Positions 1,935 through 18,782 of a stretch of DNA of 39,201 nt are shown here, one piece after another (within the stretch, counting starts at the first letter, position 1; the number at the start of each line of letters is the position of its first letter). The DNA comes from a virus. The stretch lies in the UHGV virus genome UHGV-0121072; one strand, given 5' to 3'. Made by a program: the position numbers and the translations under genes. Below the pieces are notes generated by a model. The model saw only the letters and a program-made list of their open reading frames with translations. It ran no database searches and was not told where the DNA came from.

Positions 1935-2396
1935 TTAACCGTGGTCAGATGTAACCAGTTCATTCTTGGTCCACCATCGCTTCACGTCGAAACTCGGACA
2001 GGCTTTGGCTGCTACTGAATGATGGGCCATTAGCTCTGCATTAGGGTACTTACTCATAAGCTCCTCCAGCTTGATGCGTAGGGAGTTCATCTGAGCAGGA
2101 GTGAAGTTAGCTTCAAACTTGCCCTTAGCGTCAATTCCACCTACAAGGCAGACGCCTACAGACCGTGAGTTCCAGTCCTTAACGTGTGACCCTACGACAT
2201 TGACCGGGCGACCCTCTTCCACAGTACCATCGCGCTTGATGATAAAGTGGTAGCCTACGTCCAGCCAGCCTTGCTGCTTGTGCCACATACGGATGGTCTC
2301 TACCCCGATGTCCATCTCTGGCTTGGTAGCCGAACAGTGAACGAAGATAGCGTCAGTCCGGGACCGTGGGTTGAATTGCACCTTACTCACCATCAT
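1935..2396 (-). CDS. gp3.5: T7 lysozyme / N-acetylmuramoyl-L-alanine amidase
   Basis: 153 aa; DAIFVHCSATKP, WLDVGYHFIIKRDGTVE, VCLVGGID, KACPSFD almost identical to T7 gp3.5. Confidence 0.93.
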   Translation of the reverse strand: MMVSKVQFNPRSRTDAIFVHCSATKPEMDIGVETIRMWHKQQGWLDVGYHFIIKRDGTVEEGRPVNVVGSHVKDWNSRSVGVCLVGGIDAKGKFEANFTPAQMNSLRIKLEELMSKYPNAELMAHHSVAAKACPSFDVKRWWTKNELVTSDHG

Positions 2397-2787
2397 ACAC
2401 CACCAGTTCTACTACCACTAGATTCAGGTGCTGGGTGAATCTTTGTGCGTCCGTGGTGTGCATCTGGAGACGCTTATGATTGAAGACGTGTGAGTTGCTA
2501 ATCTTCACGTAAACTTCGTCAGGCTTGCCGTGGACGATGAACGTCTGATCCACGGCAATCTTGTCGATTGTCAGGCGCTTACTGGTGATGGAAACTTCAG
2601 GAACCGCAGTCACAGGGTGGACTTCAGGTTTCACTTCCTCAAAGCGCCAGCGGAACATACCGTTGATGAATTCGTGGTTCTCTTCGGTAGCAACAAAGGT
2701 CTCACCAATTGGCGCGCAGTACTTGCTTAGCATTTCCGCAACGGAACGGTTCCAAAACGTATTTAGAACACGATAAGTCTTACTCAT
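2383..2787 (-). CDS. Hypothetical 134-aa protein with no T7 counterpart
   Basis: ATG at 2787 overlaps gp3 stop (ATGA) with AAGGAG SD 8 nt upstream; the track's upstream M is a GTG. No motif recognised. Confidence 0.5.
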   Translation of the reverse strand: MSKTYRVLNTFWNRSVAEMLSKYCAPIGETFVATEENHEFINGMFRWRFEEVKPEVHPVTAVPEVSITSKRLTIDKIAVDQTFIVHGKPDEVYVKISNSHVFNHKRLQMHTTDAQRFTQHLNLVVVELVVYDGE

Positions 2788-3239
2788 CACTTAACTCCTT
2801 TCTTCTTTGGAATGAGTATACCTGAAGGCATACGTACAGTCGCCTCTCGAAGCCACTCAACCGGGATGAATTTATCGGCAAACTTAAAGCCGTTCTTTTC
2901 GCACCATGCGCCATACGTGGTCGGAGACCCTTTGTATAACTTGGAGCGTGAACTTGAGAACACGAACCGAATGTCTAACTCTGGGTGCTGTTCTTTAATC
3001 AATAAGTGCTTCTTACGGTCTTCCACTGCGAAGATTCCCTTGGTCTCCACAATGATGCCATTTGGTAGCACAAAGTCTGGACAATAGGTATGAAGGGATT
3101 GAGGGATTGTGTACGCTATTTTATACATCTCGTACTCAGCCTTAACCCCGTTCTTCTCCAGCCACTCTTGGTTTTTTGCTTCCAGTCCAGACCGATAGAT
3201 TCCTACCGAGTGTCCTCTACTCATGCTACGTGTCGCCAT
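2787..3239 (-). CDS. gp3: Endonuclease I (Holliday junction resolvase)
   Basis: 150 aa; YCPDFVLPNGIIVETKG, DRKKHLLIKEQHPELDIRFVFSSS, KFADKFIP match T7 gp3. Confidence 0.85.
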   Translation of the reverse strand: MATRSMSRGHSVGIYRSGLEAKNQEWLEKNGVKAEYEMYKIAYTIPQSLHTYCPDFVLPNGIIVETKGIFAVEDRKKHLLIKEQHPELDIRFVFSSSRSKLYKGSPTTYGAWCEKNGFKFADKFIPVEWLREATVRMPSGILIPKKKGVK

Positions 3240-3670
3240 GTTTCTCTCCTTAGTATCTTACCTATTGTTGGCTGAGACACTCCGTAGATTGTGGCGAGTT
3301 GTCGCTGAGTAAGGATCGAAGACCTAATTTCCTTGACTTTAGTGTCAGTAAGTTTTGACATACCGCACTTCTCTCCCGGAACATGAGGAGGGTTTACACC
3401 GCGCCCCTTGTTACGCATGTCCTGAAGGTTATCCAATTGGGTCCCTACAGTAAGATGCTCAGGGTTACAACACAGCGGAGTATCACAGGTGTGTAACAGA
3501 ACGCCATTAGGTTCTTCACCTGTAATAAGCTCGTAGGCTACGCGATGTGCAAGCATGGTTTTTCCATTGTACCTAATCTGACCGTAGCCTTTGTTGTTAA
3601 CGCAGCCAGTGAAAAGCCAGCAGCTACCTGAAACCACAAGTCTCTGCTTAAGGCTTTCTACTGTAGCCAT
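3221..3670 (-). CDS. HNH homing-endonuclease-like protein
   Basis: 149 aa; HNH-like HTCDTPLCCNPEHLT and C-terminal IYGVSQPTIGKILRRETWRH as in T7 small HNH proteins; sits between SSB and endonuclease I. Confidence 0.8.
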   Translation of the reverse strand: MATVESLKQRLVVSGSCWLFTGCVNNKGYGQIRYNGKTMLAHRVAYELITGEEPNGVLLHTCDTPLCCNPEHLTVGTQLDNLQDMRNKGRGVNPPHVPGEKCGMSKLTDTKVKEIRSSILTQRQLATIYGVSQPTIGKILRRETWRHVA

Positions 3671-4408: not shown

Positions 4409-4430
4409 CTGTCCTACAGTGATAGTTTAG
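4409..4430 (-). promoter_or_regulatory. Phage RNAP promoter (variant CTAAACTATCACTGTAGGAC) upstream of gp2.5
   Basis: Consensus copy with one substitution at -3; position equals T7 phi2.5. Confidence 0.55.
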
Positions 4431-10115: not shown

Positions 10116-10442
10116 TCACTTGCATATCAGTTGGTTAGCGTGAAGATGACTGAAGTCACCATGAGTCGTGTGCTTGATGGTTGACCGTTGGTCTATCGCC
10201 GTCCAGCCTGAGACCAGAAGTTTACCATCGTCAGTGATTGGTCGTCCACCATACGCCAGACACATCAGTTCGGACTTATGTCCCTCGGCCCTGAGCCTTG
10301 CTTGCAGTACCCGGTCGCGCTCCTGCTGTTGACGTTCTGAGTGACTTGAGGTCCCGTGACGGTAGCCCGTAGCCAGTGCTGAAAGCAGATTAAGGTCTGC
10401 GTCAAGTGCATGGACCAAGTTGATGCCATAAGATTTACTCAT
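10116..10442 (-). CDS. Hypothetical 108-aa early protein (occupies the slot of T7 protein kinase gp0.7)
   Basis: ORF directly upstream of the gene 1 promoter; start overlaps the stop of the preceding ORF; no kinase motifs. Confidence 0.5.
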   Translation of the reverse strand: MSKSYGINLVHALDADLNLLSALATGYRHGTSSHSERQQQERDRVLQARLRAEGHKSELMCLAYGGRPITDDGKLLVSGWTAIDQRSTIKHTTHGDFSHLHANQLICK

Positions 10443-10639
10443 TACAGTTTGCTCCCAAGAGTTGCTATATCCCAGACGTTCGCTAAGTTGCGCATGAATC
10501 GTCCGTTAGGTTGGCGCACAGTCCAGCGACCCAGACGTACATAGTTGAATTTGTAGACTTTACGCGCTTTGTTGATGTCTCTCACCAGCACGTAGACTAT
10601 AAGTCCATAGCCTATGGCTATCAATAGTGCGATACTCAT
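10442..10639 (-). CDS. Small membrane protein, 65 aa (N-terminal TM helix, basic C-terminus)
   Basis: ATG at 10639 overlaps the stop of the upstream 29-aa ORF (ATGA); hydrophobic segment IALLIAIGYGLIVYVLV. Confidence 0.45.
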   Translation of the reverse strand: MSIALLIAIGYGLIVYVLVRDINKARKVYKFNYVRLGRWTVRQPNGRFMRNLANVWDIATLGSKL

Positions 10640-10725
10640 AGTGATTTCCGTTTAATACAATCGTATATACCATAACCCATCATCCAGATAACTGGCGCTA
10701 GGCATACCCAGTAACCGATGTTCAT
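10636..10725 (-). CDS. Candidate 29-aa hydrophobic peptide
   Basis: ATG at 10725 with AGGAG SD 6 nt upstream; MNIGYWVCLAPVIWMMGYGIYDCIKRKSL; coupled to the next ORF. Confidence 0.25.
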   Translation of the reverse strand: MNIGYWVCLAPVIWMMGYGIYDCIKRKSL

Positions 10726-10751
10726 AGTTAACTCCTATCAATGTAAGTGAT

Positions 10752-10792
10752 AATCTTTGAGGCCACCTATCAGTCAGATGACCTCTCGTCTA
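10752..10792 (-). promoter_or_regulatory. Conserved stem-loop, candidate RNase III site (variant)
   Basis: aatctttgaggccac...atgacct... variant of the stem-loop family. Confidence 0.4.
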
Positions 10793-10798
10793 TCACTC

Positions 10799-11146
10799 CT
10801 ACACTTCCACCTCGATGGTTGTCATCTTGGTCACAGTAAGACCACCAGCAAGCTCAACCGCATAGCGTATCGCCTCCTCTTTGGACTTGAAGTCCTTTCC
10901 CGCAAGGTGGTATATGTCCCCTGTTATTACCTTAGATGGCCTGCGACTTACCGCAATAGCGTTTTCCATGGTAAGCTCACCACGGCTATACTGAGTAAAC
11001 CAGCGCTTCACCGAACTCGTCCCCACCCCGAACTTTTTGGCGGTTTCCGTCACCCTATCTATAACTCCCTCAGGCAGGGAGGTGTAGTAGTTAACAACGT
11101 TGAGTTTAAATGCTACCGAGAATACATTGCGAGTTTTAGCAGTCAT
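10799..11146 (-). CDS. Early protein with IS3/IS911 OrfA-type helix-turn-helix (HTH_Tnp_1-like), 115 aa
   Basis: N-terminus VFSVAFKLNVVNYYTSLPEGVIDRVTETAKKFGVGTSSVKRWFTQYSRG follows the IS3-family OrfA HTH pattern; no transposase catalytic domain follows. Confidence 0.55.
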   Translation of the reverse strand: MTAKTRNVFSVAFKLNVVNYYTSLPEGVIDRVTETAKKFGVGTSSVKRWFTQYSRGELTMENAIAVSRRPSKVITGDIYHLAGKDFKSKEEAIRYAVELAGGLTVTKMTTIEVEV

Positions 11147-11176
11147 TATTCTTTCCTTCTGTGGTTGTCAAGTGGT

Positions 11177-11500: not shown

Positions 11501-11845
11501 TCACTCGCAGTCCTCCTCGTCGCTCTCTTCAGCCTCAAACCAGACCACATCCGAGCTATCGAGCACGTCATTATATAGCGCCTCATAGATGCGAGCTTGC
11601 AATATACGCGTTACGTCCTTGGTCTCAGGCATCAGCCCAGAGTCTTCGAACTCGTGGTCTATACCATCAGCAGCCATCACCGTGAAGATCTCGTGGTAAT
11701 AGTGCGGAACCTGACTGTCTACGACTTCATGCAGCGCATCATGGTAGTCATCGCCTTCAGCTATTTCGTCGTACTGAATACGCTCGTTAAAGGCCTCAAC
11801 GGTTGCAGTCAGCAGCTCATAGTATGCGTTAGCGTTACGTTCCAT
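11501..11845 (-). CDS. ocr: Ocr (overcome classical restriction) DNA-mimic anti-restriction protein
   Basis: 114 aa; VPHYYHEIFTVMAADGIDHEFEDSGLMPETKDVTRILQARIYE nearly identical to T7 gp0.3; acidic C-terminus. Confidence 0.9.
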   Translation of the reverse strand: MERNANAYYELLTATVEAFNERIQYDEIAEGDDYHDALHEVVDSQVPHYYHEIFTVMAADGIDHEFEDSGLMPETKDVTRILQARIYEALYNDVLDSSDVVWFEAEESDEEDCE

Positions 11846-16448: not shown

Positions 16449-18782
16449 TTATGCACTATTAGCGGGTCTGTCTAAGTACCATCCATAGTTTGTTTTAGTC
16501 AATTGTATAAGCTCCCCGTTTGTTTTGTATTGAGTAACACCAGACGCCGTATTGTACATTATCCTCTCATTAACATTAACGCCACCTCCTTGTTTGACAA
16601 GGGTAACTACTGTACGTGACGAGAGTGGGAGTATACGTATTGTTTTGCCTACATACCCACCAGTTATTTTAGTGATCGCCGAGCCAGAGGCCCCCGAATC
16701 GAGATACAATAAATCCACCGCATCGGCATCAATGGTAGAAACAACTGAGTTTACGGTAGAAGTTGTTGCAGCGTTTTCCCTTACGAAAGACGAGCCATTC
16801 CAGCGGTACATCAACCCATCCGACAGACCAATAACCTTCTCATTAACCCCAATATCAGGCGCGTAAGTTTTAGATGTATCCACTATTTTAAAAGTACCGC
16901 AAAACGGAACGGGGATAATATTCGAGCCAGTTAAACGGTTAACTGTATATAGGGAGTTATTGACAGTCCATTGCCTACCATTCCATACACTCATGAAAGC
17001 CCCTGACGACAAAAGAACCGTAGAACTATAGCCGGTTTCAACATGCGCAGATTCAGACAATAACCCTTTATCTTGTGGGTTACTGAAATCGTCAGTGCAA
17101 TCAAATAGTCTTAAGTTAGCGCGCCCCTCGAATTTTCCTGTAGAACCAACAGGGGCCACAACGAAAAGATAATCCTTATCAAAACCATAATCAGGGCCAA
17201 CGCGTAAGAACGACGCCATACAGTTAGTGGTAGGGAACTGCCCTTTTACAACCCACTTTCCACTAGAATCTTGCATTAATAGCTTTTGAATGGCTATTGT
17301 GTACGACTTAGTAGTGGTATCCGCAGCACGCTCAATAGCGAAAGGCGTTCCGTCATAAAAATTTCCGAAACCAATTTCACCACCAGATGTGCCTATAGTA
17401 TCGGTATCTGTGTCTTTCCTGACATCTTCACCATAAATATAATTGCCGTCTTCGTCAGTAGTTATATACCCTTCTACAATACCTGAAGAAATAGTAGTAA
17501 GGTAGTAATAGGGTATCGCAGGCCTGCCATTAATGTATCCTACTTGCGTTGGTGCGATAGATGAGAAATACGCACCTGCAGGCTTAACGGCGGATGTAAT
17601 ATCAACTGGCGCACTCCATGTCTCCCCCCGATCTTTAGATACGCAATATTCAATAGTGGATGTGTTGTCCGGGTTTGTGCCTTGTTGTGCGTGACCCCAC
17701 CCCGTAATCCCCTTCATTGATGTAAAGAAACAATACAAATAGCCATCAAGATTATTCAGGAATAGTACCGTTTCAGATGTGGCATACCCTGGACCTTTGT
17801 TAACAACAGTTCCAGTTGTCCAGTTCACACCGTTATCATCAGATATTAGGTAATCGATGTGCATAGGTGTACCGTCCTGTCCTGGGTCAATATTGGCACC
17901 ATCCTTCACTGTGTAGATGCATACCACCCTACCACCTGGAAGTGATACCGCTTTTGGTGCAAAGTTAAATACATTCTCTACATAAGTTTGCAACTGTAAG
18001 CTCAAATTATTGTTAAAGCTTCTTGAGTGTTTATTCCCAAAAGTGAAATTAAATCTATTTTTTGCAAATGATAGCCTTTTGTAAAGCTCAAAATCTTTAT
18101 CCTTGACCGCTCCGTTAACTAAATCAACTCCGTCATCACCAGCTAGGTCACTTCTTAAACTTGCATCGCCAACACTAACCCATGCGTCAGATGATTTAGG
18201 AGTTGAACCAGCAGGAACGTTCTTTGGAAGAGTACCGTCCCAGCGGTAATACTCACCATCCTCTTCCCATAGCAGGACCTCGTTCCATTTTGTAACGTTG
18301 AAGCCTTTCTCGAAGGAGCGGCGGGTAATATAGCCAAATAGACCAGCTTCCTTTATACTAGCAGCGATTCGGCGTGCTTCATCCTCGCTATCCTTAGCGT
18401 TGCCAGCAGAGCTACCAGCAGCCTCGGCATACTCCTTCGCCAAGTCAACCGTTTGGTCTCGACCTTCTTCTGCAATATGGATAGCCTGAAGCTCTGCATT
18501 GGTCAGGTCAATAGCTGTTAAGACTGAGCCATTCCTGAAGTCTACCACTAAGTCAGTTCCAGTCTGACGGTGAATACGAACGATGTCAAAACCTGATTGG
18601 TCAACCAACATCTCAATCATCGTTGGGTTAAGGAATCGGTAATCTCGACCAACTTCCAGTACACGGTTCAGGGTAGGGTTAGAGCTATTCACCAGCGTAA
18701 CAACAACAAACGTTCTGGCTAGGTAGTCGAACTCGATCCTGTACCGAGTGCTTCCTGAAGGGAATTGTGTAATCGTTGACAT
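16449..18782 (-). CDS. gp17: Tail fiber/tailspike: T7 gp17-like N-terminal anchor domain fused to a sialidase-like (Asp-box) C-terminal domain
   Basis: 777 aa; first ~150 aa resemble the T7 gp17 N-terminus (FDYLARTFVVVTL, LVDFRNGSVLTAIDL); C-terminal part has two Asp-box motifs SDDNGVNW and SKDRGETW. Confidence 0.88.
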   Translation of the reverse strand: MSTITQFPSGSTRYRIEFDYLARTFVVVTLVNSSNPTLNRVLEVGRDYRFLNPTMIEMLVDQSGFDIVRIHRQTGTDLVVDFRNGSVLTAIDLTNAELQAIHIAEEGRDQTVDLAKEYAEAAGSSAGNAKDSEDEARRIAASIKEAGLFGYITRRSFEKGFNVTKWNEVLLWEEDGEYYRWDGTLPKNVPAGSTPKSSDAWVSVGDASLRSDLAGDDGVDLVNGAVKDKDFELYKRLSFAKNRFNFTFGNKHSRSFNNNLSLQLQTYVENVFNFAPKAVSLPGGRVVCIYTVKDGANIDPGQDGTPMHIDYLISDDNGVNWTTGTVVNKGPGYATSETVLFLNNLDGYLYCFFTSMKGITGWGHAQQGTNPDNTSTIEYCVSKDRGETWSAPVDITSAVKPAGAYFSSIAPTQVGYINGRPAIPYYYLTTISSGIVEGYITTDEDGNYIYGEDVRKDTDTDTIGTSGGEIGFGNFYDGTPFAIERAADTTTKSYTIAIQKLLMQDSSGKWVVKGQFPTTNCMASFLRVGPDYGFDKDYLFVVAPVGSTGKFEGRANLRLFDCTDDFSNPQDKGLLSESAHVETGYSSTVLLSSGAFMSVWNGRQWTVNNSLYTVNRLTGSNIIPVPFCGTFKIVDTSKTYAPDIGVNEKVIGLSDGLMYRWNGSSFVRENAATTSTVNSVVSTIDADAVDLLYLDSGASGSAITKITGGYVGKTIRILPLSSRTVVTLVKQGGGVNVNERIMYNTASGVTQYKTNGELIQLTKTNYGWYLDRPANSA

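Follow-up and report, generated by a model that had tools for sequence, protein, structure and literature searches.

The virus genome UHGV-0121072, a stretch of 39,201 nucleotides that we refer to in its entirety as the window, carries an open reading frame (ORF) of 134 codons between its genes for endonuclease I and lysozyme. The window is a Kayfunavirus genome and the ORF is gene 3.2, a conserved and syntenic gene of this genus, the product of which (gp3.2) is composed of a conserved C-terminal core and an N-terminal domain that is swapped between phages. We regard the identification of the gene, together with this two-module architecture, as close to certain. The locus consists of the following elements:

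2787–3239, minus strand: gene 3, endonuclease I, the upstream neighbour of gene 3.2 (Pfam Phage_endo_I, E = 4e-75)
2795–2800, minus strand: Shine–Dalgarno sequence AAGGAG of gene 3.2, read from the sequence, 7 nt before the ATG and within the 3′ end of gene 3
2383–2787, minus strand: gp3.2 coding sequence, from the ORF list and the sequence, 134 amino acids (aa) plus a TAA stop, 15.6 kDa, isoelectric point (pI) ~6.4
1935–2396, minus strand: gene 3.5, lysozyme/amidase, the downstream neighbour of gene 3.2 (Pfam Amidase_2 and PHROG 822)

Genes and signals at the gene 3.2 locus

An earlier reading of the nucleotide sequence (the original prediction) had pointed to a 134-aa ORF with an AAGGAG Shine–Dalgarno sequence between endonuclease I and lysozyme, and this ORF is real. 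Its ATG occupies positions 2787–2785, with an in-frame GTG one codon further 5′ at 2790, and its TAA stop codon lies at 2385–2383. The overlaps with the neighbouring genes need some correction. The junction with gene 3, described as a four-nucleotide ATGA overlap, reads TGATG, in which the TGA stop codon of gene 3 (2789–2787) and the ATG of gene 3.2 have one nucleotide in common. The 14-nt overlap with the lysozyme gene stands if the first lysozyme ATG (2396) is taken as the start, but shrinks to 11 nt if translation begins at the second ATG, as in the annotation of K1F gp3.5. The overlaps with both neighbours suggest that the translation of gene 3.2 is coupled to theirs. Opposite the gene, the plus strand contains two ORFs of 66 and 71 aa (2530–2730 and 2561–2776, respectively), which are probably fortuitous because the plus strand of this genome is devoid of genes.

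Gene 3.2 is conserved in Kayfunavirus and under purifying selection

The region is 84–92% identical in DNA sequence to Kayfunavirus (K1F-like) genomes, in which the same slot is occupied by K1F gp3.2 (157 aa), EcoDS1 gp3.2, CR44b gp3.01 and phiHAO2-2 gp17 (134 aa). The window protein is 96% identical to the last of these over its full length, and it matches the PHROG profiles phrog_15211 (E = 1.5e-40, aa 64–134) and phrog_16385 (E = 2.1e-40, aa 47–134). The gp3.2 proteins of K1F, EcoDS1 and Dev2, gp3.01 of CR44b and CR8, and gp17 of phiHAO2-2, which belong to these two PHROGs of ‘unknown function’, represent the same gene in the same slot, and their cores are 75–97% identical to that of the window. 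The position after endonuclease I and before the amidase was seen in the window, K1F, phiHAO2-2, HC13, CR44b and metagenomic contigs.

A comparison of presence and absence among relatives, which the original prediction had called for, found gp3.2 matches (tblastn) in 219 phage records, where the gene is intact and syntenic. T7 is without the gene: as had been stated, its gene 3 (10257–10706) is followed directly by gene 3.5 (10706–11161). The ORF is hence an extra gene in relation to T7, but the notion of a gene freshly wedged between the other two does not hold, as it is conserved in Kayfunavirus as gp3.2. The phages that carry it infect Escherichia, Salmonella, Enterobacter, Citrobacter, Cronobacter, Klebsiella, Pectobacterium/Dickeya, Morganella and Providencia. 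The family comprises 257 protein clusters at 90% identity in a large protein collection and is narrow: an exhaustive hmmsearch of 1.84 billion representative proteins matched 12 clusters and yielded no distant homologue of either the core or the N-terminal domain, and all of the family contigs and records inspected were T7-like phages.

As an ORF, gene 3.2 is nothing unusual. Its annotation goes back to the K1F genome, and over 200 phage genomes in the databases list it as a ‘hypothetical protein’. The note ‘nonfunctional ... due to mutation’ attached to it in the ESh23 entry is uninformative, since that record is marked UNVERIFIED and bears the same note on other genes. The window allele has two peculiarities: codon 80 (2548–2550) encodes Asp (GAT) where at least 90% of the family members, including phiHAO2-2, have Gly (GGT), and codon 78 encodes Ala instead of the Gly found in most members. 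The Asp80/Ala78 allele is not a sequencing error because the exact window protein (P0001) recurs on seven public contigs.

In pairwise Nei–Gojobori comparisons of 18 alleles, the C-terminal 65 codons, which belong to the core, display a median ratio of nonsynonymous to synonymous substitutions (dN/dS) of 0.13 (median dS, 0.8), and in comparisons with more distant alleles dN stays near 0.1 at a dS of 1.5–2.2, with synonymous sites close to saturation. gp3.2 is thus encoded by a real protein-coding gene, the core of which is under strong purifying selection. The outcome that would have undone the original prediction, namely a frameshifted or untranslated remnant in close relatives, is contradicted by these relatives, and the untranslated-remnant alternative is effectively excluded.

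A conserved core is joined to an exchangeable N-terminal domain

In alignments, gp3.2 proteins are almost identical between approximately residue 64 and the C terminus, and nothing can be aligned before this point. The window gene is divided accordingly:

2629–2787, minus strand: N-terminal variable domain of ‘type A’, aa 1–53, a predicted small α/β fold (AlphaFold2 and alignments)
2599–2628, minus strand: Pro/Val-rich linker, aa 54–63 (PEVHPVTAVP), which aligns across long forms and has low AlphaFold2 confidence
2386–2598, minus strand: conserved core, aa 64–134, a predicted SH3-like small β-barrel, equivalent to a free-standing 74-aa form
2576–2778, minus strand: replaceable cassette, codons ~4–70, delimited by the loss of DNA homology with relatives

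The limits of the cassette were derived from blastn comparisons with K1F, HC13 and four IMG/VR relatives (L004, L018, L019 and L023). Gene 3 aligns down to positions 2768–2784, nothing aligns across the cassette, and homology begins again at 2575–2582 to continue through the gp3.2 core and the lysozyme gene.

The core also exists on its own, as proteins of 74–76 aa in many phages (HC13, Dev2, SH3/SH4 and others), and the 74-aa form was found in 14 of the 22 IMG/VR loci. In the long forms, 159 of which were sorted by type, the core is preceded by N-terminal domains of at least five Kayfunavirus types (A in the window, B in K1F, C/F, D and E) and of others. Profile–profile comparisons (hhalign) gave probabilities below 20% throughout, showing that these types are unrelated to one another and to the core. 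The close relatives named above differ accordingly: the window has the rare type A, K1F has the unrelated type B, and Dev2 and HC13 have the core only. One metagenomic protein of 226 aa (P0124) carries two N-terminal modules in tandem, type B followed by type C/F, ahead of the linker and the core. A core-only product could conceivably be made from an internal start of the window gene as well, although the sole candidate, the GTG of codon 52, which a GAGG precedes by only 2 nt, is unconvincing.

Among 50,697 phage records searched with tblastn, type A is present in three phages with four records (phiHAO1-1, phiHAO2-2 and two of CR8), and type B in 56 records (K1F and 55 others). Both types occur at the gp3.2 locus only, always in frame with the core and never as free ORFs. 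Within type A, the N-terminal domain has a dN of 0.08–0.67 and a dN/dS (ω) of 0.12–0.57, compared to a dN of 0–0.12 and an ω of 0–0.12 for the core, and in one pair of proteins with identical cores the proportion of nonsynonymous differences (pN) in the N-terminal domain is 0.33. The N-terminal domain is therefore constrained and mosaic, although the constraint is much weaker than that on the core and its evolution several-fold faster. The linker exists in two allelic versions, PEVHSVTAVPEV and PQVLPASSVPPV, the choice of which is independent of the type of N-terminal domain.

A separate observation concerns P0029, encoded at positions 601–1074 of a 39.7-kb assembly (L036). Its type-B domain is out of frame between two compensating frameshifts, with the true domain visible in frame +2, and the core is in frame. 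Either the assembly is faulty here or the scrambled domain belongs to a natural allele. In the same assembly, an HNH gene (97 aa) separates gene 3.2 from the amidase gene.

As far as the literature searched shows, the modular, cassette-swapping architecture of gp3.2 and the SH3-like fold of its core have not been described, the gene itself being already known.

The core is predicted to be an SH3-like barrel with an invariant hairpin

Full-length AlphaFold2 modeling with a uniform alignment produced a small α/β domain for aa 1–50 at a predicted local distance difference test (pLDDT) score of 89–95, and an unreliable core (pLDDT <50), the failure of the latter being due to an alignment that was too uniform. 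A Foldseek search of the PDB with this full-length model, the core of which was unreliable, returned no match at E ≤ 0.001. Re-prediction of the core alone, with the addition of sequences from a divergent clade of Providencia phages, raised the pLDDT to 85.6 at a predicted template modeling (pTM) score of 0.71. The resulting model is a mostly-β small barrel with one short helix, and it conforms to the SH3-like fold, in which about 60 residues make up a partly open barrel of five or six strands.

Fold searches with BFVD retrieved family members and many uncharacterized phage proteins of 70–90 aa, none with an annotated function, and those of the PDB retrieved generic barrels. Structure prediction, which had been proposed as a check, has thus delivered confident folds for both halves of the protein, but the fold searches gave no functional identity. 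The core resembles a range of SH3-like barrels (FeoA, the C-terminal domain of DtxR/IdeR/ScaR, the SH3 domain of ribosomal protein L2, the KOW domain of EF-P/eIF5A, and Tudor), to which it has a sequence identity of 5–15%, with no Pfam match at E ≤ 10. This resemblance is one of fold only and not of family membership, and to our knowledge the invariant motif described below is not a feature of any of these families.

The divergent clade centers on P0129, the most distant of the 12 clusters, which is encoded on a T7-like contig directly after endonuclease I. Its relatives include the Providencia phages PSTCR2 and PSTRCR_120, and their core is about 35% identical to that of the window. Here again, several different N-terminal domains precede the core. 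In one locus of this clade (L026, 6466–7039), the gp3.2 homologue is separated from the amidase gene by two small ORFs of 117 and 79 aa, neither of which has a Pfam match.

In Kayfunavirus and the Providencia-phage clade alike, the invariant columns are F83, Y93, S97-N98-S99-H100, F102-N103, Q108-M109-H110, T112 and R116-F117, most of which belong to one continuous element:

2437–2499, minus strand: invariant motif S97-N98-S99-H100-x-F102-N103...Q108-M109-H110-x-T112...R116-F117, a predicted β-hairpin and the short helix that follows it

In the model of the core, SNSH.FN and QMH.T are the two strands of a single β-hairpin, and from the alternation of side chains N103, Q108 and H110 should be located on one of its faces. 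Window gp3.2 retains every invariant column of the pattern F..Y...SNSH.FN....QMH.T...RF, and the nearly invariant G80 is the Asp mentioned above.

Searches for known families and enzymes

Neither the gp3.2 protein nor the family profiles gave anything significant in Pfam, NCBIfam, PADLOC or PDB sequences, which bears out the initial impression of a protein with no recognizable motif. The suggestion of an accessory role in nucleotide metabolism fared less well: no enzyme family is matched, and the conserved part of the protein is a predicted SH3-like barrel of 65–70 aa. The SH3b domains of endolysins (Pfam SH3_3/SH3_5/SH3_8-type) have no match at E ≤ 10 in 39 family members.

Several weak resemblances were set aside. 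The Druantia protein DruB (PADLOC) is matched by the window protein at E = 0.002, but by this one alone of the 39 members and not by the isolated core, and the match is attributed to chance. For the Imm11 domain (PF07791), the best score of 13.1 bits (E = 0.04–0.06) spans 28 residues and falls short of the gathering threshold of 22.1; weak matches of this kind were found in eight of the 39 members, the window protein not being one of them. The 2H phosphoesterases have two H-x-T/S-x motifs in a two-lobed fold of ~180 aa, whereas gp3.2 has a single HxT-like element (H110-T111-T112; H100 is followed by V-F-N) in an SH3-like barrel. Finally, the charge of the core is not consistently basic and does not point to nucleic-acid binding.

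Transcription unit and genome setting

Gene 3.2 had been placed in the middle (class II) group of genes, in agreement with its location in a transcription unit that starts at the following element:

4411–4427, minus strand: promoter of the phage RNA polymerase, φ2.5-like, upstream of gene 2.5 (match to the consensus AACTATCACnnTAGGnA)

This consensus has 11 matches in the window compared to 0.25 expected; all of them are AACTATCACTATAGGnA-like and on the minus strand. The match that follows the one at 4427–4411 is found at 1695–1679, with none in between, and gene 3.2 therefore lies within one class II transcription unit that encodes the single-stranded DNA-binding protein (SSB) gp2.5, an HNH protein, gp3, gp3.2, gp3.5 and gp3.7.

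The HNH homing-endonuclease gene of this unit (3221–3670, minus strand) encodes 149 aa with an HNH_3 domain and a C-terminal helix-turn-helix, lies between the genes for gp2.5 and gp3, and overlaps the start of gene 3 by 19 nt. It is present in HC13 and absent from K1F, phiHAO2-2, L018 and L019, in which homology skips from 3666 to 3215. In T7, gene 2.8 occupies the equivalent slot.

All genes of the window (1–39201) are on the minus strand, and the stretch, ~39.2 kb in length, has the appearance of a complete genome that is circularly permuted and reversed in orientation. A homologue of the DNA mimic Ocr is encoded at 11501–11845 (minus strand; Pfam ocr, E = 3e-32), which means that the phage already has one known anti-restriction protein. 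The papers on anti-defence in Kayfunavirus name only Ocr and gp1.2/PifA.

Possible function of gp3.2

On the analogy of small host inhibitors of T7, we tentatively favor a model in which gp3.2 is a non-enzymatic modular binder, with a core that would act on a conserved target and an N-terminal domain that would provide a second, lineage-specific specificity. The core would dock, by means of the patch formed by the invariant hairpin, onto a target that is conserved across Enterobacterales hosts or phages. Since many phages make do with the 74-aa core alone, such docking would be the basic function of the protein. The tethered, exchangeable N-terminal domain would add a second specificity, for example for a strain-variable host factor or a defence protein, and a specificity that changes with the lineage would explain both the fast evolution of this domain and its swapping by recombination. 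The HNH genes beside the locus (3221–3670 in the window and the one in L036) suggest that recombination stimulated by endonucleases may contribute to the shuffling of the cassette, the exchange of which is plausibly promoted by adjoining homing endonucleases.

This model accounts for (i) the core-only forms, (ii) the fast evolution and exchange of the N-terminal domain, (iii) the retention of the tether, and (iv) the recurrence of the same design in two clades. It is favored because most small non-essential proteins of the T7 group bind and inhibit one host protein. gp3.2 is possibly a counter-defence protein, with which its hypervariable N-terminal module is consistent. A bolder version, in which gene 3.2 of K1F-like and related T7-group phages is an unrecognized modular locus for host interaction or counter-defence and each type of N-terminal domain neutralizes or recruits a different strain-variable host factor, strikes us as possible but doubtful.

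Several considerations weigh against the modular binder. The invariant Ser, Asn, His, Thr and Arg residues could equally form a small-molecule or catalytic site, and the core and the N-terminal domain may not cooperate at all. As ω of the N-terminal domain is below 1, its fast evolution could reflect relaxed constraint and not an arms race. The part played by homing endonucleases in the exchange of the cassette is something that we only infer, and in the literature searched gp3.2 turns up in annotation tables alone.

It is unlikely, although by no means far-fetched, that the core alone has the function of gp3.2 and that the N-terminal domains are independent accessory proteins, fused to it in frame simply in order to be expressed from a permissive, translationally coupled site. 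The frequent occurrence of the core-only form, the lack of relationship between the types of N-terminal domain, and the tandem modules of P0124 would all be expected of such a fusion. The doubly frameshifted type-B domain of P0029, with its core in frame, points in the same direction, suggesting that the N-terminal domain is dispensable and the translation of the core is not. However, types A and B are confined to the gp3.2 locus, where they are in frame with the core and never free ORFs, the conserved Pro/Val-rich tether is kept in the aligned long forms, and a second clade, deeply diverged from the first, has preserved the same fusion.

A partner within the phage itself is distinctly unlikely. 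The core would in this case bind endonuclease I or the lysozyme/RNA polymerase and modulate DNA processing or transcription. Genes that overlap are often coupled in translation and have products that act as partners, and gene 3.2 overlaps gene 3 by 1–4 nt and, in Kayfunavirus, gene 3.5 as well, its slot directly after gene 3 being invariant in two diverged clades. The T7 gene 3/gene 3.5 pair, however, does without gp3.2, other genes intervene between gp3.2 and the amidase in L026 and L036, and a hypervariable, swapped domain is unexpected for a purely internal housekeeping interaction.

The SH3-like/KOW/Tudor-like core of gp3.2 could also bind DNA or RNA, such as intermediates of the replication or recombination carried out by its neighbours, and the pI of the core, which has a median of 8.4 and reaches 10.1 across the family, would suit this role. 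We nevertheless consider it quite improbable, as the window core is near neutral (pI 6.6–7.2), the net charge of the core ranges from about 0 to +5 in the family, and the invariant residues (Ser, Asn, His, Thr and one Arg only) do not make up a basic patch.

Highly improbable is a small-molecule site built from the invariant Ser/His/Thr/Arg cluster of an oligomeric mini-protein, for instance a sponge or a hydrolase for an immune-signalling nucleotide of the host. Polar residues of a catalytic type are indeed preserved at ~35% overall identity, but the match to Tad2 is no better than that to dozens of unrelated barrels, no enzyme or sponge family is matched in sequence, the lone HxT-like element rules out a 2H phosphoesterase, and a sponge or an enzyme would leave the swappable N-terminal domain unexplained.

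The probability that gene 3.2 is not a functional gene, but an ORF that exists by chance or is decaying between two genuine ones, is negligible: it has no known domain and its translation is predicted only, but an ORF of this kind would not remain undisrupted across 219 phage records and 257 protein clusters, evolve at a dN/dS of ~0.1 at high dS, possess a strong Shine–Dalgarno sequence and overlaps with both neighbours, and fold with confidence in both halves.

Significance and comparison with known systems

A conserved mini-barrel joined to a hypervariable, swapped domain, in a combination that is kept in two clades, is a good place to seek functions in host takeover or counter-defence. The family is small, soluble and easily tested, and thus a reasonable candidate for experimental follow-up. 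Kayfunaviruses are under development against K1-capsulated and other pathogenic E. coli, Salmonella Typhi and Citrobacter. Should the type of N-terminal domain affect the strains on which a phage grows, this knowledge would help in the choice or engineering of therapeutic phages.

By analogy, gp3.2 can be compared to the small host inhibitors of T7. Of these, gp2, gp5.5, gp5.7 and gp5.9 are inhibitors that each bind a single host protein. Together with gp1.2 and gp4.5 they are akin to gp3.2 in size, early or middle expression, patchy distribution and freedom from enzymatic motifs. The likeness is an analogy only, with no relationship of sequence or fold shown, and we know of no T7 small host inhibitor that combines a conserved dock with a swappable domain.

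The combination of a conserved module with an exchanged one is, on the other hand, familiar from other phage proteins, such as the tailspikes of Kayfunavirus, which share the N-terminal anchor of the T7 fibre, and the internal proteins of T4, which share a capsid-targeting sequence. In the window tailspike (16449–18782, minus strand), the N-terminal anchor of the T7 tail fibre is accompanied by a TSP1/Gp66-type N-domain and by sub-threshold matches to BNR/sialidase-like repeats. It is itself a protein of this anchored type and may have a specificity for the degradation of capsule or glycan. gp3.2 differs from these anchored proteins in that it is a 15-kDa non-structural class II product, with its conserved part at the C terminus and a variable part that some phages lack altogether.
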